Origin: Candidatus Nomurabacteria bacterium
Lineage (GTDB): Bacteria; Patescibacteriota; Minisyncoccia; Phycocordibacterales; UBA918
NCBI GenBank assembly: GCA_023898525.1
Contig: CP060227.1
Location: forward strand, 823,662 to 887,661
DNA: 64,000 nucleotides
Direction of reading: 5' to 3'
The translations under genes were made by a program, and so were the position numbers. Below are positions 2,089 through 24,432 of the stretch, in pieces. The notes under the pieces were generated by a model. It saw only the letters and a program-made list of their open reading frames with translations, was not told the DNA's origin and ran no database searches. Every line of letters begins with the position of its first letter. Position 1 is the first letter of the stretch.

Positions 2089-2535
2089 ATGAAAAAAACA
2101 ATGTTCAGTCGCGGCTTCACGCTCATCGAACTCTTGGTCGTGATTGCTATTATTGGTATCTTGGCAGCGGTTGTTTTGGCTTCACTTAATGACGCACGAA
2201 ATAGTGGTTCAGACGCTTCAATTAAGCAAAGTTTAGGCAATCTTCGCTCTCAGGCTGAAATAGTCTACAACACAAACAACTTCTCATACGCAAATGTTTG
2301 TTCTGATACCAAGGTGATCCAGCTTCTTGACGCAGCTGTATCAAATGGTCCGGCTACCGGACACTCATCAGCCGCGGTTTCTGCAACTAACGTTGCTTGT
2401 AATAACTCTGCTGGCGCATGGGCAGCAGCAGCTCCATTAAATGTAAGCGGCTATTGGTGTGTGGACAGTAGAGGAGTAGCTACCACAACAGCAGCTGCTA
2501 CTATAACTTCCGGTACTGACTACGTGTGTGACTAA
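2089..2535 (+). CDS. Type IV pilin (prepilin-type N-terminal cleavage/methylation domain), major pilin candidate
   Basis: N-terminus MKKTMFSRGFTLIELLVVIAIIGILAAV has the G/F cleavage site and Glu+5. C-terminal Cys pair (CVDS...CD). A strong terminator follows. Confidence 0.8.
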   Translation: MKKTMFSRGFTLIELLVVIAIIGILAAVVLASLNDARNSGSDASIKQSLGNLRSQAEIVYNTNNFSYANVCSDTKVIQLLDAAVSNGPATGHSSAAVSATNVACNNSAGAWAAAAPLNVSGYWCVDSRGVATTTAAATITSGTDYVCD

Positions 2536-2563
2536 CCAAAGGTACTAATAATTAATAGTTACA

Positions 2564-2590
2564 AAAACCGCCGAAGGCGGTTTTTGTTTT
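2564..2590 (+). terminator. Rho-independent terminator after the pilin gene
   Basis: AAAAACCGCCGAAGGCGGTTTTTGTTTT: GC stem followed by a T-run. Confidence 0.7.
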
Positions 2591-2644
2591 ACGGTTCTGT
2601 CTGGGCAGATTTCGCCAGTTATTTAGATAACAAATGACGGGTGA

Positions 2645-3499
2645 GTGATATACTTTAGACACATGTTAAATTTATTTTCAGACTTGCCAAGTGATGTTGT
2701 TGTGTTCACGTTTATCTTTGGTGTTATCATTGGTAGTTTTTTGAATGTTGTTATCTATCGGCTGAATACTGGTAAATCTCTAAATGGCAGCTCTCATTGT
2801 CTCTCGTGTGGTGCTAAGTTAAGGGCGTATGAACTGATACCGTTACTTTCGTATTTGATACTGAAAGGTCGGTGTAGAAATTGCGGGTCTGTTATTCCAG
2901 TGCGGTATTTTTTGGTTGAGTTCCTAACTGGTATTTTGTTTGTGGGAGTGGTCATGTTTGTATCGGGTGTGTTTGCTCAACTCTTGTTTTGGTTTGTGAT
3001 GGCTGTCTTGGTGGTGGTTGCTGTCTATGATCTGTACCATTTTATAATTCCAGACAAGCTGGTGTTATTGTTGGTGTTTGCATCGTTTGTGTATCAATTT
3101 TATCAGTTGATATTGGGTTTGTCGGCTATTGAATTTGCTTTTAATCTCGGAGCCGCTTTGCTTGGATCTTTTTTCCTTTTTTTGTTGTGGCGGCTATCTG
3201 ATGGCCGTTGGATTGGCTTTGGTGACGTCAAATTAGCGTTTCCTTTGGGTTTGCTGGTTGGTTACGCTTGGGTGTTTTCATTAATAATCTGGTCTTTTTG
3301 GGTTGGGGCACTGGTAGGATTGTCATTATTGGTTTGGCAGAGGATTAAAACCCGTGGACAACCGCACTTACGTTTCTTAGCGCGAGAGCTTACAATTAAA
3401 AGTGCGGTACCATTTGCTCCGTTTTTGATCGTCGGATTTTTAATAGTATTCTTTTTTTCACTAGATGTTATCTCACTGGTAAGTTATGTTCCAAAGTAA
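2645..3499 (+). CDS. pilD: Prepilin peptidase PilD (A24 family), bifunctional leader peptidase and N-methyltransferase
   Basis: N-terminal Cys cluster CLSCGAKL...CRNCGS. GSFLNVVIYRL motif. Multiple TM helices. Confidence 0.85.
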   Translation: MIYFRHMLNLFSDLPSDVVVFTFIFGVIIGSFLNVVIYRLNTGKSLNGSSHCLSCGAKLRAYELIPLLSYLILKGRCRNCGSVIPVRYFLVEFLTGILFVGVVMFVSGVFAQLLFWFVMAVLVVVAVYDLYHFIIPDKLVLLLVFASFVYQFYQLILGLSAIEFAFNLGAALLGSFFLFLLWRLSDGRWIGFGDVKLAFPLGLLVGYAWVFSLIIWSFWVGALVGLSLLVWQRIKTRGQPHLRFLARELTIKSAVPFAPFLIVGFLIVFFFSLDVISLVSYVPK

Positions 3500-9729: not shown

Positions 9730-10350
9730 ATGGATTCAACTTTAAATACTACAACCACAGCTACCACTAACACCGGAGGGGTACCTCTAGAACCAGTTAC
9801 GTTTGATGTTGTATCAGCAGTAGTCGGTCTAATTACTGGCACTTCGTACACCGGAGTGACTGATTTTTTTGGTGGTTTATGGAACGCGTTTGTTATCATA
9901 TCCTACACACTTTCCATCATAATGCTTCTTATTTATGTTTACGCCGCTACTCAGTATCGGCAACTATCTAACTTGCGCTTAGAAATGATGCATAAAAGAG
10001 AGCGATTGTATGATGAGCAGTTTCGTAGCGGTCCAAGAAACAGTCGTTTGGAGGATATTGATAAGCATATAACTTCAGATAACCCAAATGACTGGAAATT
10101 GGCTATTATAGAAGCTGATATAGTCCTGGATGATGAATTAAAGAAAGTTGGGTATACAGGAACATCGCTTGGTGAAAGACTGCGTAGTATCAATACAGCC
10201 CAGTTGAACAGTCTTGACGATGCCTGGCAAGCTCATAAGGTGCGAAACCAAATAGCACACGGTGGAGCAGATTTTGTCCTGACTAAGCACTTGGCCGAAA
10301 ATACCATCAAACAGTACAAGCGAGTTTTTGGGGAGCTGGGTATACGTTAA
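9730..10350 (+). CDS. Hypothetical membrane-anchored protein with a HEPN-like Rx4H motif
   Basis: Thr-rich N-terminus, one TM helix (WNAFVIISYTLSIIMLLIYVY) and a helical C-terminal domain containing KVRNQIAHGG (R-x4-H). Confidence 0.45.
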   Translation: MDSTLNTTTTATTNTGGVPLEPVTFDVVSAVVGLITGTSYTGVTDFFGGLWNAFVIISYTLSIIMLLIYVYAATQYRQLSNLRLEMMHKRERLYDEQFRSGPRNSRLEDIDKHITSDNPNDWKLAIIEADIVLDDELKKVGYTGTSLGERLRSINTAQLNSLDDAWQAHKVRNQIAHGGADFVLTKHLAENTIKQYKRVFGELGIR

Positions 10351-10445: not shown

Positions 10446-10567
10446 TTGATTTTAATTAGCATAGGTCCCAGACATGTCATTGCTTTTTAGTAAAAAATGA
10501 TGTATTGTGTTGACTTAAGGCTAATCACGTTAGTCTTTTTAATTTAGAGTACTGGAATAAATACGTA

Positions 10568-10885
10568 GCGGGGTGAGAAAGTGTCAAAACACTTTCGCAA
10601 GACCTTGCCTAGTATTTCTTGAGGCTACGAAAAGAAATACTGACAAGGTGTACAGATCCTGTAAGGATGAGGAGAGGAAACTTTTTCGTTCCAGATAAGG
10701 TAAAAATAAATACATAGCGTGACTAAGAGAGGTATCGAGCGAGAGAATTATATAGCTCTCATAACCTCCCTGGAGAACGCTTTTGTTTGAGGAGAGGTAA
10801 AAATAAATACATAGCGGGGTAGAGGAGAGGTACCTCGGGAGGCTCATAACCTCCAGACCCCGGTTCGATTCCGGGCCCCGCAACA
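10568..10885 (+). ncRNA. tRNA-like / candidate structured RNA locus: three imperfect tandem repeats (R1-R3) ending in a T-arm plus acceptor. tmRNA is an alternative reading, less well supported
   Basis: AATAAATAC(A/G)TAGCG(G/T)G occurs three times (about 10556, 10704, 10802). CTCATAACCTCC occurs twice. The 3' end is CCCCGGTTCGATTCCGGGCCCCGCA. Strong internal hairpins are present. Confidence 0.35.
10815..10882 (+). ncRNA. Degenerate tRNA-like element with a CAU (Met-type) anticodon loop
   Basis: Acceptor GCGGGG/CCCCGC. D-like stem GAGG/CCTC. Anticodon stem GGAGG/CCTCC with loop CTCATAA. T-arm CCCGG-TTCGATT-CCGGG. It is one nt short at positions 8-9 and has a 6-bp acceptor stem. Confidence 0.4.
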
Positions 10886-10936
10886 CTAAGAAAAAACCAA
10901 GAGTATAACTCTTGGTTTTTTCTTAGTGTTGCGGGG
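10876..10936 (+). terminator. Long (about 27-bp stem) hairpin/terminator that overlaps the 3' acceptor strand of the tRNA-like element
   Basis: ccccgcaacactaagaaaaaaccaagagtataactcttggttttttcttagtgttgcgggg is a perfect inverted repeat with an inner T-run. Confidence 0.6.
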
Positions 10937-11040
10937 CGATAAAACTTTTGCTTAGCATTAAAAAATGTGTCCAGGTGAAAAAAATAATTTTAACTTTGCT
11001 ATACTTTAACTCATTATAGACTAAATTAATTGTTGCTATT

Positions 11041-14000
11041 ATGAATTACTCTATTTATAAAAAACCGCAAACAGCTGGATGTGTAAGTAACTCATTTAAT
11101 TTAGCCATTACTAAAAGTGCGAGTTTTGTTCTCGCACTTCTGCTTATATTAGGGTCGTTAGAAAACGTTTCCTTTGCAGCTGTTCTTACTAATGGCGATG
11201 CTGGATATATTACCAACATTCAAACCCGTGATGGAAGTGATCTGTTTAGATCTGATGTACGAGAGGGAAGTGGTGGATTCTTATACGCATATGACATTCC
11301 CGTCCCACCTGGTGTTAACGGCCTCACCCCGCAAATCTCGCTACAGTACAACAGTCAGGGCAGTTCGGACCAAGATATACTTGGCTATGGTTGGAATCTT
11401 TCTATTCCATACATTGAACGGGTGAACAAACACGGCATCAATAAGCTCTTCGACCCCGCCTACGAAACCTTTTACTCCAGTCTTTCTGGTGAGCTTGTAT
11501 TCGATGGGGTAGATTACCTCACAAAAATCAACCAAGGCGACTTCATGAGATATAGCCGATTAAGTAATGGGTGGGTTGTTACTACAAAAGACGGTACCGA
11601 ATATCACTTTGGTTCTGACGTAGTAGCCCAACAGTCAGACCCGACCGATATCACTAACATTTCTCGTTGGTACCTCAGCTCGATTACTGACACTAACGGC
11701 AATATGGTCTCATATTCATACGTTAAAGACACTGGCGCAATTTATCCTAGTACCATCACTTACGGCCCATACACCATCGTGTTCACAACCGAAGCTGCTC
11801 CCACTCACTCGTCCTATAGTCTTGGCTTTAAGGTTGAACGAGATCAGCGTATCAATGCTATTGAAATAAAGGAAAATACCACAATCTTCACTCGACACGA
11901 CCTAACCTACGCTACTGGTATCAATACTCAACGTGACCTTCTGGAGACAATTACTCAAACTGACGTTATCACCAACACTAGCTTACCGGCGGTGATCTTT
12001 GATTACGGCGGCGAAGAAATTCCTCATTGGCAGAGCGACAGTTCGTTTGTATTCCCAGAGCCAATGGGACTTCAAGACAACGGTGTTCGGTTTGGTGACC
12101 TGAATGGTGATGGTCTTACGGATATGATTCGATACGAACGATACTGGAACGACATTCCCTCTGCACGGTGGACAGCTCGTCGTGTACACATCAATAAAGG
12201 CAATGGTAACTGGGATATAGATGTCCCGTGGAGCTGGGATGATATTGAGACACCGTTCTTCTTACACATTAATGATGGTGTATTCAGTAACACCGATAAG
12301 CGTTACGACATGGGCGCGCGCTTAATCGATGTTAACGGAGATGGGCTAGATGACTTCGTCGCTGCTTACAACTGCCTAGACTGGAGTAGTTCAGACTGTT
12401 CAAATGCACCAAACTATATGAAGGAAATTCTAGGTCCAATCCAAATGGATGTCTACCTGAACTCTGGCTCAGGTTTTGTAAAAGACGGCACTAACTGGTT
12501 AAATTTGCAGGCTATGTCTAGTTGGGATTATTCTCCTGCTGATATGACCAATCCAGGCCGAGCATTTGTTGATGTGAATGCTGACGGCTTACCAGACATT
12601 GTTCAATCAGTCGCTACGCTAAACTTCGGCTCGCATCCAAGTGAAAATGTAGCTTCAAATATTTGGATAAACACGGGTAATGATTGGGAACTTTCATCCC
12701 TTACTCTTCCTGCGGCACTTGCCAAATATCCGTGGCACCCTAGTTACCCAAATCTTCGTAAATTCAGTGACTATGGAACTCGATTTGCTGACGTTAACGA
12801 CGATGGGTTAATCGATGTTTTACGAGGATATCGACAGTCATTCAGTGGTAGCGTTAATACGTATACTGACGAAAAAACTGTATACATCAACACTGGTGAT
12901 GGTTGGGAAGAAGACGTGTCTTGGAACTTACCTGTTGAGTTTGTTATTCAAGATCAAACTTCTGGTTATCAGATGTTTGATTTTAACGGTGATAAACTTC
13001 CAGATATTCTTCAATCGCACTACCATAACAATAATGGTTTTAGTTATAATTTATACCTGAACAAAGGTACTACATGGCATCTTGAGAATTACTCAGTGAA
13101 CAGTACTCACTATCCAGTGTATCCTCAGCCACCTTTCCCGCTTACCAGGACAGCCGCTTATACAGGCGGTGGTGGTACGGCTATGATCGATTTTGATGGT
13201 GATAATCTACTTGACGCCTGGAATCTGTATTATCTAGACTTAGATGAAACTCAAAGCTCCGGTGGGAGTGTTTTCCTAAATACTTCAGATATTCCAGACC
13301 TAGTGACCTCAATCATTGATAAAAGCGGTTCCATTACTTCTATCAACTACGACGGCTACCTTGCTACTGTTCAATCAGACTATGTAAAAGTTGGTAACTC
13401 ACCAGTCAATCCGATAGTGGTCACTCATAAAACCATCGATAATAACCACGGTCACACGGTCACTGAAACATATGAGTACAATGATGCTCATCAGTACGTC
13501 GAGGTGAGCGATATTTTTGATCGCAAATTTGCCGGCTTCGGAAAAGTCACCAAAACCACCGATTTAGGAAAAGAAACCACTTACTACCACCAAGGAAACG
13601 GCGTAGCGACTACAACCGAAGAGGGCATAGATGACGAAGCATTAATCGGGCAGGTTTATCGCACAGAAATAACTGATCTTTCTGACAATCTCTATACACT
13701 TTCTCGTCAAAATTTTGCCACCACTTCACTTGGTAACGGCAGTACGTTTGTAAAACTGGAAAGCGGTCTCAAGCTTGATTACGATGGTGATAGCGACAAG
13801 AAAGCTTCGGCCAACAGCTACACCTACGACAACACCAATGGCTCACTCCTTACCAAAACGGAGTGGGGAGAGGTGAGTGGAAATACTGACGGTACTTTCT
13901 CAGATACCGGTACCGACAAGCAAGTGACAACTATTGAGTACGCTACCAATGCGAACGGTATAGTTCTACCATCCAAGCAAACCTTGACCGACAACTCTGA

Positions 14001-17000
14001 CACCAAAGTCCAAGAGTCTCGCTTCTACTACGATAACCAACCGCTTGGCACAGTTACTCTAGGTAACAAGACCAAAGAAGAGAATTGGCTAGGTGGCAGT
14101 AGTTATACAAACAAACAGTGGACATACAACAGCCTAGGGCTGGTAACCGCCGAAACTGATCCAGATGGTAATACCACCAACTATACTTACGATACCTATA
14201 ACTTATATCCAGCTAGTGTCACCAACGCCCTCAATCAAACCACACAGTACGAGTATGACTATTCTTCCGGGCAAGTAGCGACCACCACTGACGCTAATGG
14301 CAATATTTTTGCCACCACTTACGACGGGTTTGGTCGACCGCTTACCGTTACATCACCTGACCCACAGACCGGTACTCCGGTAGTACAGACCGAGTATGTC
14401 TATACCGATACTCCCGGCAGTGTCAGTGTGCAAAAGAAAGATTATCTAAATAGCGGATTAGTTAAAAACTCGTATACTTTCCTAGATGGCTTTGGCCGAA
14501 AGATGCAGGAAAGGCAAGAAGCGGAAGGAATGGATCAATACGTGGTGCGTGATTATGTCTACGGAAGCAATGATCTTTTGGAAAAAGAGTCACTGCCGTA
14601 CTTTGGTACCGGAGCGGCGAGAAGTGCTTCTACCACCAACGCAAACCTCTTAAGCACCTACGCTTACGATCCATTGGCTAGAGTAACAAGCGTAGCAACT
14701 GTGGTTGGTACGACCACTACCGCCTACGACCAATGGAAAGAAACCGTTACCGATACTGCCGGCAATGATAAGGTATTCCAGTATGACGCTTTTGGTCGAT
14801 TGGCAGCCGTGACCGAAAACGAGGGAACCAATTCATACACTACCAACTACACTTGGAATAATCTCGGTAATCTGACCAAGATAACTGACGCCGAAAGTAA
14901 TGTGCGAAATATAAGTTACGACGGACTTGGTCGCCGTACTAGCCTGGAAGATTTGCATGCACCAAGTGATAGTACTTTTGGAACTTGGACTTTTGCTTAT
15001 GACAACGCTGGCAACCTGACCAGCAAGACTAATCCAGAGAGTCAGACTACCAACTACACCTACGACGCTCTTAATCGCCAGTTGACCGAAGACTACACCG
15101 GACAGACTGGTACGGAAATCACTTATACTTATGATACTTGTACGGGTGGCGTGGGGCAACTTTGTACCGCTGCCAATTCTTCCGCTACCACTAACTACAC
15201 CTACACCCCAAACAACCTCTTGGCTTCAGAAGCTAAAACAATAAGTAGCAATACCTACACCACTAGCTATGAGTATGACCGCCAAGGCAACCAAACACTC
15301 ATTACTTATCCAGATAATTCAGAAGTGAAGTACACCTTTAATAAAGGTGGGCAGGTAGACAAAGTGGAACAAAAAGAGGGTGGGGGAACTTTTGCAAACA
15401 TTGTGAGTAATATTGATTATGGACCACATGGTCAGATGGAAAATATCGAATACGGCAATGGCTCTATAACTACTCGTACTTATGATGCGACCGAACTGTA
15501 CCGATTGAAAAATATCCTCACCACTGCCACCAGTACCTATGGCACCGGCGGTCCGGGAGAGGAGCTTATAAGTATTGAAGCCAAACTGGCTTCACTTACC
15601 ACTGAGCTCCCGCTTGCGACTACCAGTGAAGCCTTGGTGGTGGAGACGGTAGAGGAGCCGGTAGAGGAGATGGTCGCAACTTCTTCTGATCTTGCTATCG
15701 AACCGGCTACTTCAGATTCAACTACTGCAACTTCTACTAATATCGAAGCGACAAGTACAAACCAAGAAATAGCCGAAGCCGAACTCACCTCGACTACAAC
15801 CACAACTGATGAGGTGGTGGAGACTAGCGAAATTGCCACCACCACCACGGTCGCTGCTCCAGACGCGACTACCACTGCGTCTTCGTCGTCTGAAACCGCT
15901 ACCGGTACAGCTGACCAAGTGGTGAGTGTGGTAGAAGCTGATGTGGTATTTGATATACCTACCACCACTGCCACCAGTACTTTACCAGCAGTACCAACAG
16001 CTATTGCTTCTACCAGCAGTAACTCCACACCACCAGTTGCGGAAGCGGTGGTAGTTAATCAGGTAGTGGCTAAAAGCAAGCTAAAGCTAAAAATCAACAA
16101 CGCCCACGAAGCCCGAATGTGGCAAAAATACCACCATGAGCGAGTAGCTGGATTAGAAGCAGAGGGAGCTAATCAGGCTGTGCTTGATAAAGCCAAGTAT
16201 GCTCAGGATCAGTTGGAGTCATACTTAATTGAGGATGGTTATCTAAAAGAAAAAGGTGGAAGCGTAAAAGGACACGCTAAAGATTATGTAGAGAGCCAGG
16301 GTAAGAAACTTATAAGCAAAGTGGTGGACTTTATCTTACCGGATACCGTCCAAGCTTACCTATTTGGGTTAGAAGATTTTGAAAATTGTTCAGCTCTTCC
16401 GTGTACCTTTGACAACAATGTATCTTGGGGAGGGGTTACCCCGGCTTTAGATAACACCAGTAAGGTGGCTGGTGCGGATTCACTAAAAGAAACTGTGACT
16501 GGAGAAGGTTCCGGTGGCTTAGAGTTTGTTGATCAAAACACCGGCGAGATTTATGCTCAGTTTAAGGTATTTATTCCGAGTAATATGACTTGGGGACCTT
16601 CCGGTTATCATGGCATTCTTAGATTTGAAGATACGATCAACAACTCAGTTTTCTGGATGAATGTTGAGGATTGGGGCACAGCCAGACTAACCATGATGGG
16701 AGATGTTCTACCGTGGACTGACACCGGAATTGATTTGGTGAAAGGGGCGGTCAACACTATTGAAGTACGCTTTAAGACTGGAGCCACTAACGGCGATGTA
16801 GATATCTGGCTCAACAACACCAACGAAAGTGCACCTGACTACAACGGAAGTGGTACCCTAAACACCGGTACTGATAATGTTGACTATGTAATCGCCGGAG
16901 TTACTTATACTCCCGAAGCGATTAGTACCACCTACTTCGATGATATTGCTATCGACACTACCTTTATTGGTGAGCTAACTTCAGGTGGCCAACCGCCGGT

Positions 17001-18960
17001 GGTGCCATTTGTTGAGAATGTCCAAAACCTTTCCTATACCTACGACACTGTCGGTAATATTACCGAGATAGTAGACAACAGCGGTACCGACTCCGCCGGT
17101 ACCATCACCTACACCTACGACGACCTCTACCGCCTTATCTCAGCTTCCACTACTAATGCTAGTACTACTCCATACCAAGAAACCTATACCTACAACAGTA
17201 TCGGTAACGTCCTCAGCAAGTCTGATGTTGGTACGTATAGTTATGATGGTGGACAGAGTGGAGGAACCAGCTACTACATCTATGACGATAGCATCACTAC
17301 CGGTTGGACAGACTGGTCTTGGTGGACTACCATCAACCCAAGCGCCACCTCTCCTGTCTACTCAGGACTCTATTCATTGGGGTTAGTATACACCCAACCC
17401 TGGGCTGGTATCTCTTATCACAACAACAGTTTCGACAGCTCACCATATGATAATCTAGAGCTGGCGGTTAATGTCGGTACCGACACTACAGCCAATCTCT
17501 ACCTCTATTTCACCAACAGTGCCAGTACACCTTTTACCATCATTAACCTAAAAGACTACGTCACCGGCGGTTTCCAAGCCAACACCTGGCACAGCCTCAC
17601 CATTCCACTTTCAGACTTAGGTTACCAAAACTATCAAGGCGCCACTGAACTAAACATAGAGACCGACCAAGCCGCGACAGTGAATTTTGACAGTATTCGT
17701 TTGACTAGTACCGGCGGAGGAGGAAGCTACGCCAACCCCCACGCTGCCACCACCATCGGCGGCACCACCTACACCTACGACCAAAACGGTAACCTCCTAA
17801 CCGACGGTAATACCACTAACACCTGGAACTACCGCAACGAACTAACTGAGTCCACAAAAGCAGGAATAACGACCAGCTATGGATATGACCACAATGGTGA
17901 TCGAGTGTTCAAGACTACTTCCGAAGGAACGACTTATTATCCTTTCGCTAATTACGAAATTACTGATACTGGTACTACCACAAAGCACATCTACATGGGT
18001 GACCAATTAGTTGCCACGATTGAAGGTTCTGGTGCTGGAGCGTTGACGTATTACAACCATCTTGATCATCTCGGTGGTACCAGTGTGGTAACCGATGGTA
18101 TTGGAGCTATCACCCAAGAATTGGACTACTACCCATTCGGTGATACGAGGATAGATAATGAGTACGGAGACTTTAGACAACATATTCAGCACTCAGGTCA
18201 CCAGAAAGACGATGAAACAGGACTCATCTACCAAGGTGCACGTTACTATAATTCTGGTATCGGACGATATACATCACAAGATCCAGCAAACTTACGAAAT
18301 CCAGCGCAGTTCCTCTATGACCCACAACAGTTAAATACCTATGCGTATGCAAGGAATAATCCACTGAAGTACATTGATCCTACGGGGGAGAAGATTGAGC
18401 TTGTTTCTAGACCAGTAATTTCTTCTTATGATGCACATATGTTCTATCGAGTTACTCCAGATAATCCAGGCCAGATTTCTATTGATGGAATTCCTCAGGG
18501 CACTGAACAGTTTTCGATAGGGGCTTACAACCGAGGTGGTTTCTTAGGTATCGGCAATAAATTGACTCCAGAGTTTAGTTACGAAGGAGGTCCAGTGAAT
18601 ACTGACACCCCATACTTAAACGGGGAAAAGGCGCCTACAGCAAGTGTTGTTATCACACCACCAAACAACATGTCAGATACAGAGTTTATTAACAGTCTTG
18701 GTGCTTCAGCAAATAGTATCGACAAGACAGGTTATTATATGTTTGGTAAAACTGGTAAATTTGGTGTAGCTAATTCAAATAACTTCGTATACGAAGTTGG
18801 TAATAGGAGTGGTGTTGGTAATCAGGTCAGCTCGTTCAATTCAGGTGCATATACTCCAGGACAGAGTCAAGGAATCCCAACTGCAACATTGCTTGATAAT
18901 ATAAGGTCTAGCCTGAACAGTATTAAGGAGAGATTGTCCAAAAAAGATGATAGCGAATAA
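11041..18960 (+). CDS. Giant secreted polymorphic-toxin protein (2639 aa): signal peptide, SpvB/TcB-like N-terminal domain, FG-GAP-like repeats, RHS/YD repeats, S/T-rich linker plus LamG/CBM-like insert, Rhs core, variable C-terminal toxin domain
   Basis: Signal peptide ASFVLALLLILGS. DxNGDGxxD repeats (FGDLNGDGLTDM, IDVNGDGLDDF, VDVNADGLPDIV...). Many YD repeats (YTYDALNRQ, YEYDRQGNQ, YTYDTVGNI). Rhs core GARYYNSGIGRYTSQDP...NTYAYARNNPLKYIDPTGE, followed by about 200 unique residues. Confidence 0.85.
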   Translation: MNYSIYKKPQTAGCVSNSFNLAITKSASFVLALLLILGSLENVSFAAVLTNGDAGYITNIQTRDGSDLFRSDVREGSGGFLYAYDIPVPPGVNGLTPQISLQYNSQGSSDQDILGYGWNLSIPYIERVNKHGINKLFDPAYETFYSSLSGELVFDGVDYLTKINQGDFMRYSRLSNGWVVTTKDGTEYHFGSDVVAQQSDPTDITNISRWYLSSITDTNGNMVSYSYVKDTGAIYPSTITYGPYTIVFTTEAAPTHSSYSLGFKVERDQRINAIEIKENTTIFTRHDLTYATGINTQRDLLETITQTDVITNTSLPAVIFDYGGEEIPHWQSDSSFVFPEPMGLQDNGVRFGDLNGDGLTDMIRYERYWNDIPSARWTARRVHINKGNGNWDIDVPWSWDDIETPFFLHINDGVFSNTDKRYDMGARLIDVNGDGLDDFVAAYNCLDWSSSDCSNAPNYMKEILGPIQMDVYLNSGSGFVKDGTNWLNLQAMSSWDYSPADMTNPGRAFVDVNADGLPDIVQSVATLNFGSHPSENVASNIWINTGNDWELSSLTLPAALAKYPWHPSYPNLRKFSDYGTRFADVNDDGLIDVLRGYRQSFSGSVNTYTDEKTVYINTGDGWEEDVSWNLPVEFVIQDQTSGYQMFDFNGDKLPDILQSHYHNNNGFSYNLYLNKGTTWHLENYSVNSTHYPVYPQPPFPLTRTAAYTGGGGTAMIDFDGDNLLDAWNLYYLDLDETQSSGGSVFLNTSDIPDLVTSIIDKSGSITSINYDGYLATVQSDYVKVGNSPVNPIVVTHKTIDNNHGHTVTETYEYNDAHQYVEVSDIFDRKFAGFGKVTKTTDLGKETTYYHQGNGVATTTEEGIDDEALIGQVYRTEITDLSDNLYTLSRQNFATTSLGNGSTFVKLESGLKLDYDGDSDKKASANSYTYDNTNGSLLTKTEWGEVSGNTDGTFSDTGTDKQVTTIEYATNANGIVLPSKQTLTDNSDTKVQESRFYYDNQPLGTVTLGNKTKEENWLGGSSYTNKQWTYNSLGLVTAETDPDGNTTNYTYDTYNLYPASVTNALNQTTQYEYDYSSGQVATTTDANGNIFATTYDGFGRPLTVTSPDPQTGTPVVQTEYVYTDTPGSVSVQKKDYLNSGLVKNSYTFLDGFGRKMQERQEAEGMDQYVVRDYVYGSNDLLEKESLPYFGTGAARSASTTNANLLSTYAYDPLARVTSVATVVGTTTTAYDQWKETVTDTAGNDKVFQYDAFGRLAAVTENEGTNSYTTNYTWNNLGNLTKITDAESNVRNISYDGLGRRTSLEDLHAPSDSTFGTWTFAYDNAGNLTSKTNPESQTTNYTYDALNRQLTEDYTGQTGTEITYTYDTCTGGVGQLCTAANSSATTNYTYTPNNLLASEAKTISSNTYTTSYEYDRQGNQTLITYPDNSEVKYTFNKGGQVDKVEQKEGGGTFANIVSNIDYGPHGQMENIEYGNGSITTRTYDATELYRLKNILTTATSTYGTGGPGEELISIEAKLASLTTELPLATTSEALVVETVEEPVEEMVATSSDLAIEPATSDSTTATSTNIEATSTNQEIAEAELTSTTTTTDEVVETSEIATTTTVAAPDATTTASSSSETATGTADQVVSVVEADVVFDIPTTTATSTLPAVPTAIASTSSNSTPPVAEAVVVNQVVAKSKLKLKINNAHEARMWQKYHHERVAGLEAEGANQAVLDKAKYAQDQLESYLIEDGYLKEKGGSVKGHAKDYVESQGKKLISKVVDFILPDTVQAYLFGLEDFENCSALPCTFDNNVSWGGVTPALDNTSKVAGADSLKETVTGEGSGGLEFVDQNTGEIYAQFKVFIPSNMTWGPSGYHGILRFEDTINNSVFWMNVEDWGTARLTMMGDVLPWTDTGIDLVKGAVNTIEVRFKTGATNGDVDIWLNNTNESAPDYNGSGTLNTGTDNVDYVIAGVTYTPEAISTTYFDDIAIDTTFIGELTSGGQPPVVPFVENVQNLSYTYDTVGNITEIVDNSGTDSAGTITYTYDDLYRLISASTTNASTTPYQETYTYNSIGNVLSKSDVGTYSYDGGQSGGTSYYIYDDSITTGWTDWSWWTTINPSATSPVYSGLYSLGLVYTQPWAGISYHNNSFDSSPYDNLELAVNVGTDTTANLYLYFTNSASTPFTIINLKDYVTGGFQANTWHSLTIPLSDLGYQNYQGATELNIETDQAATVNFDSIRLTSTGGGGSYANPHAATTIGGTTYTYDQNGNLLTDGNTTNTWNYRNELTESTKAGITTSYGYDHNGDRVFKTTSEGTTYYPFANYEITDTGTTTKHIYMGDQLVATIEGSGAGALTYYNHLDHLGGTSVVTDGIGAITQELDYYPFGDTRIDNEYGDFRQHIQHSGHQKDDETGLIYQGARYYNSGIGRYTSQDPANLRNPAQFLYDPQQLNTYAYARNNPLKYIDPTGEKIELVSRPVISSYDAHMFYRVTPDNPGQISIDGIPQGTEQFSIGAYNRGGFLGIGNKLTPEFSYEGGPVNTDTPYLNGEKAPTASVVITPPNNMSDTEFINSLGASANSIDKTGYYMFGKTGKFGVANSNNFVYEVGNRSGVGNQVSSFNSGAYTPGQSQGIPTATLLDNIRSSLNSIKERLSKKDDSE

Positions 18961-18964
18961 ATAA

Positions 18965-19243
18965 ATGATTATTATGAAAAAACAATTTATATCAGCATAC
19001 CTAGGGTTATCTACAGGAATATTCCCCTTAGTGTGTTACAGAGTTTATGAGAATTATGGGATCAGAGGTGGTCTAAATGAAGTATTAGAGGGACTTTTGC
19101 TCTATTTACTTTTGTTCATTCCAATTTCTATCGTTCTAGTTTTAGCTGCAAAAGTGTTAGAAAAAATGAGTGTAAAATTGAATAATAAAATATTATTCCT
19201 AGTATCGTTGGCAATTGCTGTAATTTTCCTCTACTTGCTGTAG
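18965..19243 (+). CDS. Small 2-TM membrane protein; candidate immunity protein for the Rhs C-terminal toxin
   Basis: 92 aa, hydrophobic, starting 5 nt after the giant gene stop, as in a toxin-immunity arrangement. Confidence 0.4.
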   Translation: MIIMKKQFISAYLGLSTGIFPLVCYRVYENYGIRGGLNEVLEGLLLYLLLFIPISIVLVLAAKVLEKMSVKLNNKILFLVSLAIAVIFLYLL

Positions 19244-19440
19244 GTGACTAATCCATCTTAGCTATTACGGAAAAATGTAATTCTGACCCTTGGTCTGCAT
19301 TCGGTATAGTTCCGCCAAGAACAACAGACTTATTGCCTTTGGTGACTTCAATACAATTATCTAAAAGTAATCTTCTCTTGGTATCAAAAGTGTTTGCTTT
19401 ATTAAGCCTTAGTCTTAAGGTCGTGCAGTATTGAGGAAAT

Positions 19441-20200
19441 GGGGTCAGCCACCATTTATGATAAAATAAATGAATGCCAAGAATAAAAAGAGTAGATGTT
19501 GGTGGTGAAGTATATCACGTACTAAATCGTGCTAATGCTCGAGTGCAGATATTTGATAACAAAAAAGATTATCAGCAATTTGAAGAAATACTTGAAGAGG
19601 CTATTGAAAAATACGAAGTACCATTACTGGCATATTGTGTTATGCCAAATCACTGGCATATGGTACTGCAACCAAAACAAGATGGTGATATGCAGAAATT
19701 TATTGGGTGGCTTTCTAATACGCATACTCGTAGGTGGCATGTTACAAAAGATACAATAGGTCAAGGTCATCTATATCAGGGTCGATACAAATCATTTATT
19801 TGCGAACAAGACCATCACCTACTTACAGTTCTTAGATACGTTGAACGAAACGCTAAAAAAGCAAATTTAGTCAAAAAGGCTGAAGACTGGCAATGGTCAA
19901 GTGTATGGAGAAGAGAAAATGGTACTTTAGAACAAAAGAAAATATTAAGTAACTGGCCTATATCTATACCAAGAGACTATTTAAATCTTCTTAATAAACC
20001 TATGAATGAGTCTGAAGAAGAGGCTTTAGAAAAATCAGAAGAAAGAAGTATACCTTTTGGAGAAGAGGAGTGGGTTAATAGAAAAGTTAAAAAGTATGAG
20101 ATTGAACAAGTGTTACGGGGAGTAGGTAGACCTAAAAATGGTGGCTGACCCCATTTCTGACCCCATTTCCCCATTTCCACCATTTCCATTTCCGGAAAGG
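19441..20200 (+). mobile_element. REPtron-like unit: rayT gene flanked by inverted REP-like repeats, plus a CCATTTC tandem array
   Basis: GGGGTCAGCCACC at 19441-19453 and its exact reverse complement GGTGGCTGACCCC at 20140-20152. Then CCCCATTTC-type units repeat 5 times (20149-20200). Confidence 0.6.
19474..20148 (+). CDS. rayT: REP-associated tyrosine transposase RayT (Y1 HUH transposase, IS200-like fold) with a C-terminal extension
   Basis: YHVLNRAN. HUH motif PNHWHMV. GHLYQGRYKS. RYVERNAKKANLV...WQWSS. Confidence 0.8.
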   Translation: MPRIKRVDVGGEVYHVLNRANARVQIFDNKKDYQQFEEILEEAIEKYEVPLLAYCVMPNHWHMVLQPKQDGDMQKFIGWLSNTHTRRWHVTKDTIGQGHLYQGRYKSFICEQDHHLLTVLRYVERNAKKANLVKKAEDWQWSSVWRRENGTLEQKKILSNWPISIPRDYLNLLNKPMNESEEEALEKSEERSIPFGEEEWVNRKVKKYEIEQVLRGVGRPKNGG

Positions 20201-20276
20201 TGACATTATTCTGCATACATTAAAACACAGGAAAAACTTGCTAATATAACCATAAAATTGGTATATTCTTTTAACT

Positions 20277-20957
20277 ATGCAATGTATTATTTTGGCGGCT
20301 GGCAAGGGATCAAGACTTAGGCCGATAACAGACACTATCCCTAAACCGTTAGTGAAAGTTGACGGAAAAACCCTGATGGATCACGTAGTAGGGGCGTTAC
20401 CTAGTTCAATAAAGGAATTGATTATTGTTGTAGGTTATAAAGGTGACATGATAAGGGAATACTGTGGGGACAGCTTTTACGGACGACCGGTTACTTATTT
20501 GGAACAAAAGGAAATAAATGGTCCGGCCAAGGCGTTATGGCTCGCCAAAGATTTGATTAAAGGACGATTTCTTTTTATGTTTGCTGATGATATTCATGGT
20601 CGTGACGACATGGCGAGGGCGGTTTCTTATAGTCGCTCTATCTTGGCAACCACCAGTGACACTCCGGAACGCTTTGGTGTAATTGTTCGTAACCCTGATG
20701 GTACGATTGCTGATATGGTAGAAAAACCTTCATCCCCATCCTCCAATTTAGTTGCTACCGGACCAATGGTGTTGGATCAGCATATCTTTGATTTTGCTCC
20801 CGAGGCACCAATTAATGGTGAATATTTCATGCCTGAAATAATTATGCGCTATAAGGAGAAATATCCAATGGCGGTTGTGGAAGAGAACTTTTGGTTGGCG
20901 ATTGGTTACCCTGAAGACTTGGAAAAAGCTGAAAAGAAGATACAATCACTATCTTAA
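20277..20957 (+). CDS. Sugar-phosphate nucleotidyltransferase (NTP_transferase family)
   Basis: N-terminal MQCIILAAGKGSRLRPITDTIPKPL is the G-x-G-x-R pyrophosphorylase motif. Confidence 0.7.
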   Translation: MQCIILAAGKGSRLRPITDTIPKPLVKVDGKTLMDHVVGALPSSIKELIIVVGYKGDMIREYCGDSFYGRPVTYLEQKEINGPAKALWLAKDLIKGRFLFMFADDIHGRDDMARAVSYSRSILATTSDTPERFGVIVRNPDGTIADMVEKPSSPSSNLVATGPMVLDQHIFDFAPEAPINGEYFMPEIIMRYKEKYPMAVVEENFWLAIGYPEDLEKAEKKIQSLS

Positions 20958-20967
20958 ATAATTTATT

Positions 20968-21651
20968 ATGCAATGTGTTATCCTGGCGGCGGGAAAAGGA
21001 ACCCGCATGCGGCCTTTAACTGAACAAACTCCAAAACCGTTAATAGAAGTCTGTGGCAAACCTTTATTGCAGCATATCGTCGAAGCTTTGCCTGATGAAG
21101 TCGATGAAATAATCTTAGTGGTTAATTATCTTGAGGAGCAAATAAGGCGACATTGCGGTCTGCATTACTGCGGTAAATTGGTTCAGTATGTGCACCAAGA
21201 GAACGCGGTTGGGGGGACTGGTGAGGCTTTGCTGGCTGCGGCGCCACTTATCGAAGGAAGGTTTATGTTTATGTATGCTGATGACATTCATGGGTCGTAT
21301 GCTCTCAAAGCAGCTGTAACTTATCCTTATGCAATGCTTTCGGTGCAGCACGATGAACCACAGCATTTTGGTGTTTTGGATCTAAACTCGGACGGCACTC
21401 TCAAGGCTATTCATGAAAAGCCAGCAGAACCTACATCTAATCTTATAAACATCGGCGGGATGGTTTTGGACAAAAAGATATTTAAATATGATGTGGCACG
21501 GTCAGCGAATGGCGAATTGTATGTGACCGATATGGTAACGGCTTTTGCTCAGGATTATCCTGTTATGGTAGTGGAGCAATCTTTGTGGTTGCCGCTTGGG
21601 AAGCCGGAGGATATTTTGGCGGCGGAAAAAATGCTAGGGTGCAACCGGTAA
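20968..21651 (+). CDS. Sugar-phosphate nucleotidyltransferase, tandem paralog of the upstream gene
   Basis: MQCVILAAGKGTRMRPLTEQTPKPL. Alignable to the upstream gene along its whole length. Confidence 0.7.
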   Translation: MQCVILAAGKGTRMRPLTEQTPKPLIEVCGKPLLQHIVEALPDEVDEIILVVNYLEEQIRRHCGLHYCGKLVQYVHQENAVGGTGEALLAAAPLIEGRFMFMYADDIHGSYALKAAVTYPYAMLSVQHDEPQHFGVLDLNSDGTLKAIHEKPAEPTSNLINIGGMVLDKKIFKYDVARSANGELYVTDMVTAFAQDYPVMVVEQSLWLPLGKPEDILAAEKMLGCNR

Positions 21652-21705
21652 GAGAGGTGCAAGAAATTGAAAAAAATAGAATTTTATAGTAATGTGTTGA
21701 GCACT

Positions 21706-21779
21706 GTCGATGTAGCTCAGTCGGTTAGAGCGTAGCACTCATAAAGCTAAGGTCGGAGGTTCGATCCCTCCCATCGACA
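21706..21779 (+). tRNA. tRNA-Met (anticodon CAT), elongator type; could be tRNA-Ile2(LAU)
   Basis: Cloverleaf: acceptor GTCGATG/CATCGAC, D-arm GCTC-AGTCGGTTA-GAGC, anticodon loop CTCATAA, T-arm GGAGG-TTCGATC-CCTCC. G1-C72 is paired, so it is not an initiator. Confidence 0.85.
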
Positions 21780-22091
21780 CAATGTAGCGAAGCGGAATTG
21801 CGGAGAGGGGAAGCGCAAGGTTTGCGTCTAGCAAACCGAGCAGGGATCGAACGACGGGATGATGTCAGTATACGAGCGAATGAGGCGATAAAACAATGTT
21901 TAAACATAGTTTTATCGCGGCACCATGTATTTTTGTGAGTGAAACTAAACAAAATACACCGGTAACCGTCAGGATGACTTCTTCTATCTTTTCGAAGCGG
22001 GATGCTTTGAAAATTTACAAAATCATGTATAATGCTAGGCACAAACTTTATTTACCGAGGAAAAAGAAGGTTTTTGATAAGTTTGTTGACT

Positions 22092-22421
22092 GCGGTGGTA
22101 GCTCAACTGGTTAGAGCACCCGCCTGTAGACGTGCAGCTTTTTGTGCGAAAGCCAAATTGAAACTCTCCGGGATATCGGTGAAGGCTAAGTCTTCTTGAA
22201 GATATGCGAATACCGAGGGAACCCTATACACAAAAAAACATAGTATAGGGGCTCCGTAGAGACTAGATACCGGGGTACCTAAACCCAGCACTGCTTTTAA
22301 CTCTAAATATATTTAAAGTTAAAAGCAGTGCTGGACATGGTAAAGATATAGTCCACGCCTTTGTGAAAACATTGGAAGAAGTGCACGCGGGAGGTTGCGG
22401 GTTCGAGTCCCGTCTACCGCG
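22092..22421 (+). tRNA. tRNA-Asp (anticodon GTC) interrupted by a 256-nt group I intron in the anticodon loop (between positions 35 and 36)
   Basis: 5' exon GCGGTGGTAGCTCAACTGGTTAGAGCACCCGCCTGT. 3' exon CACGCGGGAGGTTGCGGGTTCGAGTCCCGTCTACCGCG. The T-arm and G73 are Asp-like (E. coli tRNA-Asp has the identical T-arm GCGGGTTCGAGTCCCGT). The spliced anticodon loop is CTGTCAC. Confidence 0.75.
22128..22383 (+). ncRNA. Group I self-splicing intron (256 nt) within tRNA-Asp
   Basis: The exon ends in U, paired to an intron G (P1: exon CTGT / intron GCAG). The intron ends in G. S element AAGATATAGTCC at 22343-22354. R/P7 GACTAGATACCGGGG at 22261-22275. GGACATGG P6-like. AAATTG P4-like. P10 CGTG:CACG. 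Confidence 0.75.
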
Positions 22422-22435
22422 CAGTTAGGTAAAAA

Positions 22436-22470
22436 CAAAAAACCACCAATGCTTGGTGGGTTTTTGTTTT
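22436..22470 (+). terminator. Rho-independent terminator after tRNA-Asp
   Basis: AAAAAACCACCAATGCTTGGTGGGTTTTTGTTTTT. Confidence 0.7.
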
Positions 22471-22721
22471 TAGGAAGCAAACTGCTTTGCTTTCGTACCT
22501 AACTGCTAGAAGGAGACATGCTGCTTTGCAACAGTTGGGTCCGGGTCAACAGTGTATTTATTTATTTTGGTACTTTAGACTCTGTTGAGATTTTAGAGAA
22601 TTTTAGTAACGGTAGTTGGTTAAGGAAGGATATATCTAAGTTGCCACAAGCCATCTCAAAGGATTGAACTCTAGACCTTTGCATTACAATTGAGTAAATC
22701 AGTGTCGTAAAAGATTATTAT

Positions 22722-22794
22722 GAGCCGACTCCGAGATTCGAACTCGGGACCTACGGTTTACGATACCGTTGCTCTACCTACTGAGCTAAGTCGG
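22722..22794 (-). tRNA. tRNA-Thr (anticodon CGT)
   Basis: Minus-strand cloverleaf: GCCGACT-TA-GCTC-AGTAGGTA-GAGC-A-ACGGT-ATCGTAA-ACCGT-AGGTC-CCGAG-TTCGAAT-CTCGG-AGTCGGC-T. Confidence 0.85.
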
Positions 22795-22868
22795 CGACGA
22801 ATATAATGTTAGTATAGTCGGACTTTGATTTCAATTGATTTTTTGATAGGATAGGCAAACTGAATATT

Positions 22869-22941
22869 GCCAATGTAGCTCAGTTGGTAGAGCGCGTCCA
22901 TGGTAAGGACGAGGTCTCCGGTTCAATCCCGGACATTGGCT
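22869..22941 (+). tRNA. tRNA-Thr (anticodon GGT)
   Basis: GCCAATG-TA-GCTC-AGTTGGTA-GAGC-G-CGTCC-ATGGTAA-GGACG-AGGTC-TCCGG-TTCAATC-CCGGA-CATTGGC-T. Confidence 0.85.
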
Positions 22942-22946
22942 CAAAA

Positions 22947-22975
22947 TAAAAAGCACCCGTTTAGGGTGCTTTTTA
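22947..22975 (+). terminator. Rho-independent terminator after tRNA-Thr(GGT)
   Basis: AAAAAGCACCCGTTTAGGGTGCTTTTTATT. Confidence 0.7.
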
Positions 22976-23038
22976 TTGGTATGCAGCTACTTGCTATTTA
23001 TGGATAAATGTAGCATTATGTTGATTGTGAGTTAATAC

Positions 23039-23377
23039 ATGGAGGGTACTGAAATGAACTGGTTGACTCTTATTGGAATATTTGTGTTGGTAATTGGAAT
23101 AGGAATTATCTGGACACAAATTGCGCTGTCTTTGAAGACAAGAAAAGAAAAAGAGGTGATGATGTGTGAAACTGAGGTTCGAAAGTTGTTAGAGGACCTT
23201 AAAAATACCGAACTCACCTTTAAGAGTGAAATAGATAGTATAATTACAGAGTATGATAAATATACTACCGATCAATTTGAAAAAGGTTTGCCAGATAGGC
23301 TTGCCTATATTAAGAAAATAAAACAGAAGCTTGAAGATATCAAGGACTCATCAGGTCAGGTTATGGGAGCTGCATGA
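23039..23377 (+). CDS. Hypothetical small membrane protein (one N-terminal TM helix plus a charged helical tail)
   Basis: 112-aa ORF followed by the hairpin TCCCCACACATTGTTTGCGGGGATTCTTTTTTT. Confidence 0.45.
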   Translation: MEGTEMNWLTLIGIFVLVIGIGIIWTQIALSLKTRKEKEVMMCETEVRKLLEDLKNTELTFKSEIDSIITEYDKYTTDQFEKGLPDRLAYIKKIKQKLEDIKDSSGQVMGAA

Positions 23378-23572
23378 AAATCCCTTGTTCACCAAATCAT
23401 TTAAATCCCCACACATTGTTTGCGGGGATTCTTTTTTTACCCACATGTACGTGCAGGTAAGGTCGGTTTGGTGTACTCAAATTTGACAATTCAAGCAAAA
23501 TGTCTGATACTCTGCGATGGGTTAGTTGAATACTGGGGTGCAACGATGTCATTGAGTTTGAGAGGCTAGAAA

Positions 23573-23767
23573 ATGGAAGAAATTCAGAAACTTATGACGT
23601 ATTTGGTGTTCATAGTAATTGCCGCTTTTTCGGCTTTAATTTTGCTGGGTTACATCAACGAAGTATTAGCATACGTCACTTTTTATTTATTTATGCTGAT
23701 TTTACTTATTGTATCGGCTAAGATTTTGCGTTTGATTTGGGTAAACAAAAAAGAATGTTTGCCATAA
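23573..23767 (+). CDS. Hypothetical 64-aa two-TM protein
   Basis: Short hydrophobic ORF with a terminator-like hairpin downstream (AGCGTCTC...GGGGACGCTTTTTT). Confidence 0.35.
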   Translation: MEEIQKLMTYLVFIVIAAFSALILLGYINEVLAYVTFYLFMLILLIVSAKILRLIWVNKKECLP

Positions 23768-23901
23768 TAAAATACAAGAGCGTCTCTGTTTTTTATAGGG
23801 GACGCTTTTTTAAATAACAGTTGACAGATTACTTTAAATGGAATACTTTTCTGAATGGAACGTTTGTTTCTGAGTAAATTTTTATTTCAAAGGAGCAAAA
23901 A

Positions 23902-24432
23902 ATGAAAGTATTTGATATACCAAGTATATGGGCAAGTGATTCATTTGTTTTTGTTTTTATCGTCGTGGTGTTTGTTATTCCTCTGGGAGCTGTAATTTTC
24001 CTACGAATCGTCAAAGAAGACTTTTTTCTAGAAAAACTTGCTGTCGATAGAAAGGAGATTGAAGAGGATATAAAAAAAGCACAAGATTGGGTAATAGAAC
24101 ATGGAGTTAATTTTCTAAAGGGATACCTGAATACTTTAAATGAAAAACTCAGTGGGACTGAGGGGATCGAAAACCCAAACCTATATGAGTTTGTTGTAGC
24201 GATATTAGTGCTAAAAAAAATTCGTGAAGAGCTTGATATTATTATTGATATTCAGACTAAGCTTTATAGAATAGAAGGACTTATAAAAAGCCAAGAAGAA
24301 GTTGGGTGTCTAGGTGATGGTAATATTGCTCTTGAATACAATAAGATTATCACCGGAAATTCTAATAAGCGAGGTGATTTGGCTAAAGAGTATAAAAATA
24401 TATCACGCTTATACGACACTATATCTTATTGA
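23902..24432 (+). CDS. Hypothetical protein with an N-terminal TM helix and coiled-coil region
   Basis: 176-aa ORF with GGAG-like RBS (AAAGGAGCAAAAAATG) and a downstream terminator GCCCATAAAAG...CTTTTTATGGGCTTTTTCTTG. Confidence 0.5.
   Translation: MKVFDIPSIWASDSFVFVFIVVVFVIPLGAVIFLRIVKEDFFLEKLAVDRKEIEEDIKKAQDWVIEHGVNFLKGYLNTLNEKLSGTEGIENPNLYEFVVAILVLKKIREELDIIIDIQTKLYRIEGLIKSQEEVGCLGDGNIALEYNKIITGNSNKRGDLAKEYKNISRLYDTISY

Follow-up and report, generated by a model that had tools for sequence, protein, structure and literature searches.

What does a giant toxin-like gene do in a bacterium of the candidate phyla radiation (CPR), and how could its product act on another cell? The question matters since the ways in which CPR episymbionts attack, hold or feed from partner cells are largely unknown. 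It is raised by a 64,000-nucleotide stretch of DNA (the window) from Candidatus Nomurabacteria bacterium, a member of the Patescibacteria / Parcubacteria group (assembly GCA_023898525.1, contig CP060227.1, positions 823,662 to 887,661). Here a single intact open reading frame (ORF) at 11041-18960 on the forward strand encodes, from an ATG start and with no internal stops, a protein of 2639 amino acids. The gene takes up ~0.7% of a contig of ~1.09 Mb (1,087,875 bp), and the identical protein is deposited at NCBI as 'MAG: VCBS repeat-containing protein [Candidatus Nomurabacteria bacterium]' (MAG, metagenome-assembled genome). A first-pass annotation made from the DNA letters had proposed one giant fused TcB/TcC-like RHS toxin; the ORF list and the translation agree with this, and domain searches match SpvB, FG-GAP, RHS_repeat and TIGR03696. 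We consider it likely that this gene encodes a TcdB/TcaC-type polymorphic toxin, which fuses equivalents of the Tc B and C components, serves antagonism against bacteria and ends in a tip of the permuted NlpC/P60 type.

The N-terminal half of the protein resembles TcB. Residues 1-46 (11041-11178, forward strand, as for all features of the gene given below) are predicted to form a Sec-type signal peptide, as had been suggested: in a hydropathy scan residues ~18-50 are the sole strongly hydrophobic stretch of the toxin, the long n-region carries K7, K8 and K25, the h-region reads FVLALLLILGSL, and cleavage is predicted between VSFA and AV. The same heuristic test is passed by 96 of 120 homologues, and most of the failures are visibly truncated gene starts; equivalent N-termini are seen in relatives P0002, P0004 and P0010. 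The N-terminus fits a Sec/signal peptidase I-type signal, and both a cleaved form and an uncleaved signal-anchor are compatible with it. Behind the signal lies an SpvB/TcaC N-terminal domain at the start of the TcB-like shell (residues 47-330; 11179-12030), which matches PF03534 with E=2e-10 on the whole protein and E=2e-16 (2.3e-16) on residues 1-330. It is followed by an FG-GAP, integrin-alpha-like beta-propeller equivalent to that of TcB (residues 331-760; 12031-13320), with five stretches of FG-GAP_3 (PF13517, E=3.1e-12), further FG-GAP matches and D-x-N-G-D-G-x-x-D repeats.

The TcB structures were out of reach for a single-sequence search of the PDB with residues 47-1100, and a family profile was required. 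When residues 61-1107 and seven diverse homologues were combined in a profile and compared with the PDB sequences, it matched TcdB2-TccC3 (4o9x, E=6e-22), TcdB1 (6l7i_F) and YenB (4igl_A), all three at E~1e-21, as well as the SpvB N-domain structure 6p0x (E=1.8e-9) and the integrin alpha-V propellers (E~1e-6). Positions 217-731 of this profile align with residues 321-790 of TcdB2 and 338-802 of YenB. The proposed likeness of the N-terminus to TcB is therefore borne out both by the Pfam domains and by the profile match to TcB structures.

Downstream of the propeller, a TcB-mid-like region and a first block of RHS/YD repeats form the beginning of the shell (residues 761-1510; 13321-15570). Over the whole protein RHS_repeat (PF05593) matches in nine stretches with E=6e-28, TIGR01643 also matches, and YD_repeat_2x is found with E=2e-23 (NCBIfam). 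Solved Rhs shells match residues 1217-1427 in a PDB search, and PF12256 (TcdB_toxin_midN) and PF25023 (TEN_YD-shell) are present in many homologues. A further 90 residues of RHS repeats (1986-2075; 16996-17265) separate two inserts and are homologous to the middle of TcC shells. This was seen with a profile of residues 1681-2240 of the toxin family (profile A3), positions 280-377 of which match YenC2 (4igl_B, residues 296-422) with E=7.6e-10; TccC2 and RHS2 match as well, the TcC-type matches ranging from E=7.6e-10 to 2e-7 and covering residues ~300-420 of these proteins. Since the N-terminal profile leads to TcB and profile A3 to TcC, both halves of the Tc cocoon are present within one polypeptide.

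The last RHS repeats and the Rhs core occupy residues 2241-2450 (17761-18390). The Rhs_assc_core model TIGR03696 matches residues 2363-2449 with E=1e-19 (NCBIfam; score 70.8 against a cut-off of 32.5), and the core region matches solved Rhs cores, namely 8h8a, 7q97, Tse5 and bacterial teneurin-like proteins, with E=2e-19 to 1e-15. The core ends in NNPLKYIDPTG-E, which contains the aspartyl-autoprotease motif PxxxxDxxG (P2441-LKYI-D2446-PT-G2449), with SQD2414P upstream. This motif is required for the self-cleavage of TcC (PMC7861908), and we predict from the sequence that the toxin is cleaved autoproteolytically after E2450. Such a cut would release a tip of 189 residues, 20.2 kDa and an isoelectric point (pI) of 5.2. 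An RHS/YD shell and an Rhs core are thus present as annotated at first, with RHS_repeat, YD_repeat_2x and TIGR03696 all found, but the shell is not continuous: ~730 non-RHS residues (1511-1985 and 2076-2240), overlooked earlier, interrupt it.

The inserted sequence begins with a low-complexity linker rich in T, S, A, E and V (residues 1511-1680; 15571-16080), which has a guanine-plus-cytosine (GC) content of 0.51, consists to 70-82% of T/S/A/E/V/P per 50-residue window, and is probably disordered and perhaps glycosylated. No sequence match to it was found in any homologue; a similar composition occurs at the same place in P0002, P0004, P0010 and P0015. We considered the linker as the joint of a TcB/TcC fusion and rejected it, as the RHS block past insert 1 has its aligned counterpart in the middle of TcC (~300-420) and not at its start. 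Insert 1 (residues 1681-1985; 16081-16995) comprises three predicted helices (~1688-1765) and an invariant Cys-x4-Cys (C1783/C1788), together with a ConA-like beta-jellyroll (~1823-1956). Insert 2 (residues 2076-2240; 17266-17760) is a beta-jellyroll with the fold of a carbohydrate-binding module (CBM); here the sequence profile matches a family-8 CBM with E=7.7e-7, independently of any structure model. An AlphaFold2 (AF2) model of residues 1681-2240, built from nine sequences, reached a mean predicted local distance difference test (pLDDT) of 56 overall and 70-89 over the two sandwiches, and from it we used these two better-modelled sandwiches alone. The inserts are common to only ~10 of the top 120 homologues, the others having LamG, Ig-like or glycine-rich domains instead; the shell therefore seems tolerant of swapped surface modules. 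We infer that the inserts are putative glycan-binding targeting domains, and lectin-like modules of this kind may set target specificity. In three relatives (P0005, P0007 and P0008) insert 2 is preceded by a third inserted domain of ~190 aa, located past the RHS block that separates the inserts; the window protein lacks this domain.

The C-terminal tip (residues 2451-2639, 189 aa; 18391-18957) belongs to no family that could be recognised at the sequence level, as the first-pass annotation had stated for about 200 residues: Pfam gives nothing below E=0.046 for the last 190 residues. Relatives of the tip are rare, with only 40 among 1.84 billion cluster representatives in an exhaustive HMMER search; word-indexed searches with the tip (4 matches) and with the tip-family profile (13 matches) added no annotated or distant relatives. 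In members that extend upstream of the domain, it forms the C-terminal end directly behind the Rhs-core motif. An AlphaFold model of the tip from a 37-sequence alignment has a pLDDT of 91.7 and a predicted template modelling score (pTM) of 0.84. The figures listed with this model are 6.8 for TseH, a type VI secretion system (T6SS) effector, 6.7 for YiiX, 6.6 for CLN5, 6.4 for 3kw0, 6.3 for PPPDE/DeSI, 6.0 for PLAAT4 and 5.5 for Aichivirus 2A.

Conservation in the tip family is concentrated in H2466, D2522, Y2565 and N2578-S2579-N2580. H2466, on the second strand, is His in each of the 36 sequences aligned at that column. The motif N-S-N-N-F opens a helix (domain residues 130-140) at the position where the nucleophile of the permuted NlpC/P60 fold sits; S2579 is Ser in 35 of the 37 sequences and Cys in the other two, N-S-N being otherwise invariant. 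As read from these residues, the layout of the tip is that of permuted NlpC/P60 enzymes with a Ser at the nucleophile position, and judging from the model a permuted NlpC/P60-like fold is somewhat favoured. The permuted NlpC/P60 toxins and enzymes compared (TseH, Tox-Act1, YiiX/YaeF, LRAT/PLAAT, PPPDE/DeSI and CLN5) have a catalytic Cys, whereas the tip has Ser in 35 of 37 sequences, lacks the His + Cys catalytic pair and, should it belong to them, would be a Ser variant. It also differs from these families in having no similarity at the level of hidden Markov models and in carrying an extra C-terminal helix (domain residues 168-189). The permuted NlpC/P60 toxins Tox-Act1 and TseH are phospholipid-directed, and Tox-Act1, which works from the periplasmic side, is paired with an immunity protein that is membrane-associated (PMC12994826, 2026). 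We tentatively suggest that the target of the tip may be a lipid.

A candidate for a cognate immunity protein is found directly behind the toxin. An ORF of 92 aa with three hydrophobic, presumably transmembrane (TM), segments (18965-19243, forward strand) begins 4 nt past the toxin stop codon, and such a three-TM partner fits the membrane-associated immunity partner of Tox-Act1. Small ORFs homologous to it lie directly 3' of homologous tips at the metagenomic loci L001 (58% identity, E=1e-37) and L002 (33%, E=5e-7), and locus L003 has another three-TM ORF, of 99 aa. Neither the tip nor the 92-aa ORF matches a named Tox, Ntox or Imm family of Pfam. One block, which runs from the end of the core through the tip and the 92-aa ORF, has 72% nucleotide identity to an orphan module that lies downstream of another RHS gene in L001, and the GC content declines along it from 0.45 (core) to 0.40 (tip) and 0.31 (92-aa ORF). 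We infer by linkage that this ORF is the cognate immunity gene.

The toxin moreover shows the classic pattern of a polymorphic toxin, as judged by sequence comparison. We compared the tips of ten backbone relatives, nine of them with inserts. The 210 residues ahead of the cleavage motif are 41-55% identical between the window toxin and these relatives, and none of their tips matches the window tip (best E=0.18), in keeping with the hypervariability that had been anticipated for the C-terminus. The tip family of the window is also found on the shorter, insert-less backbones P0018 and P0033, while the tips of other relatives include Tox-REase-7/9, Ntox21/44, RNase, NlpC/P60, VanY and others (Pfam lists). 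Behind the closest backbone relative, P0003 from a Paceibacterota MAG, lie an Imm26-family gene, an orphan module of TEN_YD-shell and Tox-REase-7, and ~10 small unannotated ORFs; in this region (17771-24380 of locus L006) spare toxin/immunity cassettes are probably lined up.

Several observations bear on how such cassettes might move. An IS200-like Y1 transposase gene (19474-20148, forward strand; Pfam Y1_Tnp, E=3.4e-21) adjoins the toxin/immunity cassette downstream, and a 52%-identical homologue (2381-3052) adjoins the orphan cassette copy of L001 on its upstream side; this type of transposase may be tied to cassette movement, or its presence may be a coincidence. L001 (1-4412) is a classic Rhs array, in the order end of the main RHS gene, 93-aa ORF, small ORFs, Y1 transposase, 289-aa orphan core-end and tip, and 89-aa three-TM ORF, and its orphan tip is 80% identical to that of the window. 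A 70-nt stretch of the core end of its main gene matches the core end of the window gene at 74%, which fits tip replacement through recombination at the conserved core.

The surroundings of the cassette contain a number of repeats. Two tRNA-Met(CAT) genes (10813-10884 and 21706-21780) flank a block of ~11 kb, which contains, besides the toxin and immunity genes and the IS200-like one, a tandem pair of NTP_transferase paralogues (20277-20957 and 20968-21651). Upstream, in 10550-10940, three copies of AATAAATAC(A/G)TAGCGGGGT occur at 10556, 10705 and 10802; this sequence comprises the start of tRNA-Met and its upstream flank, and the last copy alone stands in an intact tRNA (10813-10884). The same region holds a 41-nt direct repeat (10679 and 10776) and a perfect 30-bp inverted repeat (10875-10904 / 10908-10937) that takes in the 3' end of the tRNA. 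These tRNA-Met repeats may have been left behind when integration or recombination occurred repeatedly at the tRNA, or they may be tRNA copies that have decayed.

The architecture described above belongs to a known class. TcdB/TcaC polymorphic toxins, as defined by Zhang, Aravind et al. in 2012 (PMC3482391), consist of a signal peptide, SpvB, an integrin-like propeller, RHS repeats and a toxin domain, and the window gene shares with them every feature of the class, namely the signal, SpvB, the integrin-like propeller, RHS, a variable tip and an adjacent immunity gene, with function being read from sequence. The gene is a member of this class, which has been in the literature since 2012, and is not a new kind of system. 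It differs in that Patescibacteria/CPR are absent from the phyla listed in 2012, that its tip and immunity protein fall outside the named families, and that it carries the ~730 aa of inserts found in ~10 of 120 relatives. A full-text literature search of a limited collection found no papers on TcdB/TcaC-type toxins in CPR bacteria. What is new is secondary to the class assignment: a compact, unannotated toxin/immunity cassette, probably encoding a Ser-variant permuted NlpC/P60 enzyme; the lectin-like inserts in the shell; and the frequency with which the class seems to occur among CPR bacteria.

Comparison with other RHS systems places the toxin further. With the BC cocoons of Tc toxins (TcdB2-TccC3, 4o9x; YenB/YenC2, 4igl) it has in common SpvB, the FG-GAP propeller, the RHS cocoon, PxxxxDxxG and a hypervariable cargo; unlike them it is a single chain that carries a Sec signal, lectin-like inserts and an acidic cargo and is accompanied by an immunity gene, and no TcA is found nearby (in the window and at 66 related loci). 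Its shell without the inserts amounts to ~1760 aa and is shorter than that of TcdB2 + TccC3, which we take to be roughly 2150 aa. The T6SS Rhs effectors (RhsA, Rhs1, Tse5 and Tse15) and WapA of Gram-positive bacteria likewise have an RHS shell, a TIGR03696 core, a cleaved toxin, a 3' immunity gene, orphan modules and a drop of GC in the tip, but the window toxin is without a PAAR, VgrG-binding or prePAAR N-terminus and has instead an SpvB and propeller cap and Sec export. The bacterial teneurin-like proteins are Sec-exported surface toxins with a YD shell, polymorphic tips of ~15 kDa, immunity genes in the operon and no known delivery machine (PMC13018210). Homology to them (9pt5 and 9ifo, E~1e-16) is limited to residues 2230-2449 of the query; they are composed of FN-plug, NHL propeller and YD shell, whereas the window toxin has the SpvB and FG-GAP cap and no NHL or FN-plug match in Pfam. 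By its domain content, then, the window toxin is not a teneurin-like protein.

A scan with the N-terminal profile of one genome per GTDB species yielded 66 related loci, in nearly all of which the toxin gene is a single ORF of ~1700-3100 aa. About 50 of the 66 are from Patescibacteria (Saccharibacteria, Paceibacterota, Parcubacteria, Nomurabacteria, Kaiserbacteria, Uhrbacteria, Ryanbacteria, Peribacteria and Doudnabacteria), a proportion that is biased since the profile was built from the subfamily of the window toxin; the remaining loci are from Acidobacteriota, Bacteroidota and Proteobacteria. Since relatives occur in many Patescibacteria lineages, the use of a fused B-C cocoon as a surface weapon is probably common among CPR bacteria. 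No TcA-like ORF was found within +-10 kb of the 66 loci or in loci L003-L006; the few other ORFs of at least 900 aa near the 66 loci encode RNA polymerase beta and beta', FtsK and a LamG protein, and a single one, of 1129 aa, has no assignment. As far as these neighbourhoods and the window allow a test, the toxin is 'self-contained', as had been proposed.

We propose the following mode of action. The toxin would be exported via Sec to the surface of a cell without an outer membrane, where it would fold as a closed cocoon and be cleaved by its Rhs core after E2450. We propose that, with cleavage taking place within a closed cocoon, the tip is held unfolded inside. The two jellyroll/CBM-like domains, set on the T/S-rich linker, could bind surface glycans of a neighbouring cell and so stand in for TcA, which binds the receptor in the case of Tc toxins. 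An unknown trigger would then free the tip, probably via the propeller end. The tip would most likely be an acyl hydrolase or transferase of the permuted NlpC/P60 type with a His2466/Ser2579 pair, and would act from the outer face of the cytoplasmic membrane of the target, with membrane lipids as the point of attack, while the three-TM product of 18965-19243 would shield the producer and its kin. The role would be antagonism between bacteria, directed at rival CPR cells or at the host bacterium. Of the two roles envisaged at first, host interaction or inter-bacterial killing, the adjacent and co-varying immunity-type gene favours the latter.

Three other explanations deserve consideration. The protein could be the BC part of a three-part Tc (ABC) toxin, with a TcA pentamer encoded elsewhere and the tip injected into eukaryotic cells. 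Profile-level homology to TcdB2/TcdB1/YenB and YenC2/TccC2 agrees with this, tcB-tcC genes fused by nature occur in genomes with Tc loci (PMC7861908), and our inspection covered 64 kb of the ~1.09-Mb contig. Yet the window holds no other ORF >700 aa, no TcA-like ORF lies within +-10 kb of the 66 related loci, and the immunity-type gene next to the toxin points to bacterial targets. The toxin family furthermore has Sec signals, whereas the Tc toxin of Yersinia entomophaga is reported to be released by lysis that depends on the type 10 secretion system (T10SS; PMC10847048). The tip, at 189 aa, also lies marginally outside the range of 201-400 aa that holds for the hypervariable region (HVR) of 97.9% of TcCs (PMC7861908), and the gene comes from a CPR bacterium whose genome is ~1 Mb in size. 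We therefore regard a Tc complex as very unlikely. The adhesin reading fares hardly better. Here the protein would serve mainly for attachment, in the way of a teneurin-like YD shell, with inserts and propeller fixing the episymbiont to its host and an incidental or inactive tip. It would account for the display of two lectin-like domains and a mucin-like linker, bacterial teneurin-like proteins have been proposed to act in cell-cell interaction (PMC13018210), and Ser in place of the usual catalytic Cys marks pseudo-enzymes in some families. It is, however, at odds with the invariance or near-invariance of the polar tip residues (H, D, Y and N-S-N) in a compact model, with the shift of tip and small ORF between backbones as a cassette, typical of toxin/immunity pairs, and with a propeller of the FG-GAP and not the NHL type in a protein whose teneurin-like PDB matches cover the Rhs core alone; we think it highly improbable. 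An unlikely but better alternative keeps the architecture and makes the tip a cell-wall or peptide hydrolase, an amidase or endopeptidase like the canonical NlpC/P60 effectors, instead of a lipid-directed enzyme.

The reading as a TcdB/TcaC-type toxin against bacteria, with a permuted NlpC/P60-type tip, has to be set against a number of points that weigh against it. Searched against Pfam and NCBIfam, the tip and all 37 family members gave nothing except one member touching DUF3750 (E=0.054), and the tip-family profile had no match among PDB sequences at E<=10. A Foldseek search of the tip model against the PDB returned no significant match (best E=0.46, Aichivirus 2A at E~1), and an hhalign comparison of the tip profile with an approximate sequence of human PLAAT3 placed NSNNF over NCEHF at E=0.13, a non-significant hint. 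A Ser nucleophile is not usual in the permuted NlpC/P60 superfamily, which makes the chemistry uncertain, and the tip is acidic (pI 5.2) in contrast to the typical basic cargo of Tc toxins. Many sister tips are nucleases that must cross a membrane, so that the family needs a translocation step for which our scheme does not account. The poor insert model (pLDDT 56) leaves the placement of the inserts relative to the shell uncertain, and glycan binding by them, like export, cleavage, encapsulation and release, is a prediction. The absence of a TcA-sized gene, finally, refers to the 64-kb window of a ~1.09-Mb contig.

Under the reading as an antibacterial toxin, a cocoon that operates without TcA or T6SS raises the question of how the cargo exits the RHS shell and enters the target. 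In its most far-reaching form, CPR bacteria would have turned the TcB-TcC cocoon into a TcA-independent, jellyroll-targeted surface weapon whose cargo is an unrecognised Ser/His permuted NlpC/P60 acyl-hydrolase acting on the lipids of the partner; the full combination is speculative and, taken as a whole, rather improbable. CPR bacteria are generally without lipid synthesis. If the proposal were true, a lipid-releasing tip together with a membrane immunity protein could therefore both kill the host and harvest its lipids.

The genes around the toxin are ordinary housekeeping genes, including ligA, gatC, gatA, tRNAs, CTP synthase, P-type ATPases and pilC. When the window was searched by tblastn with the core, the tip and the RHS block as queries, neither additional RHS fragments nor orphan modules appeared, and scans for promoters and terminators at the gene start and at the toxin/immunity junction gave nothing informative. 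Two ORFs, of 206 aa (9730-10350) and 468 aa (52497-53903), had no Pfam match at the thresholds used. Two P-type ATPases (42531-44372 and 45285-47294) are clustered with a three-domain multicopper oxidase (47776-49425) and resemble a metal (copper) homeostasis locus; a multicopper oxidase also lies a few kb from the RHS gene at the locus of P0002 (L005), probably by coincidence.

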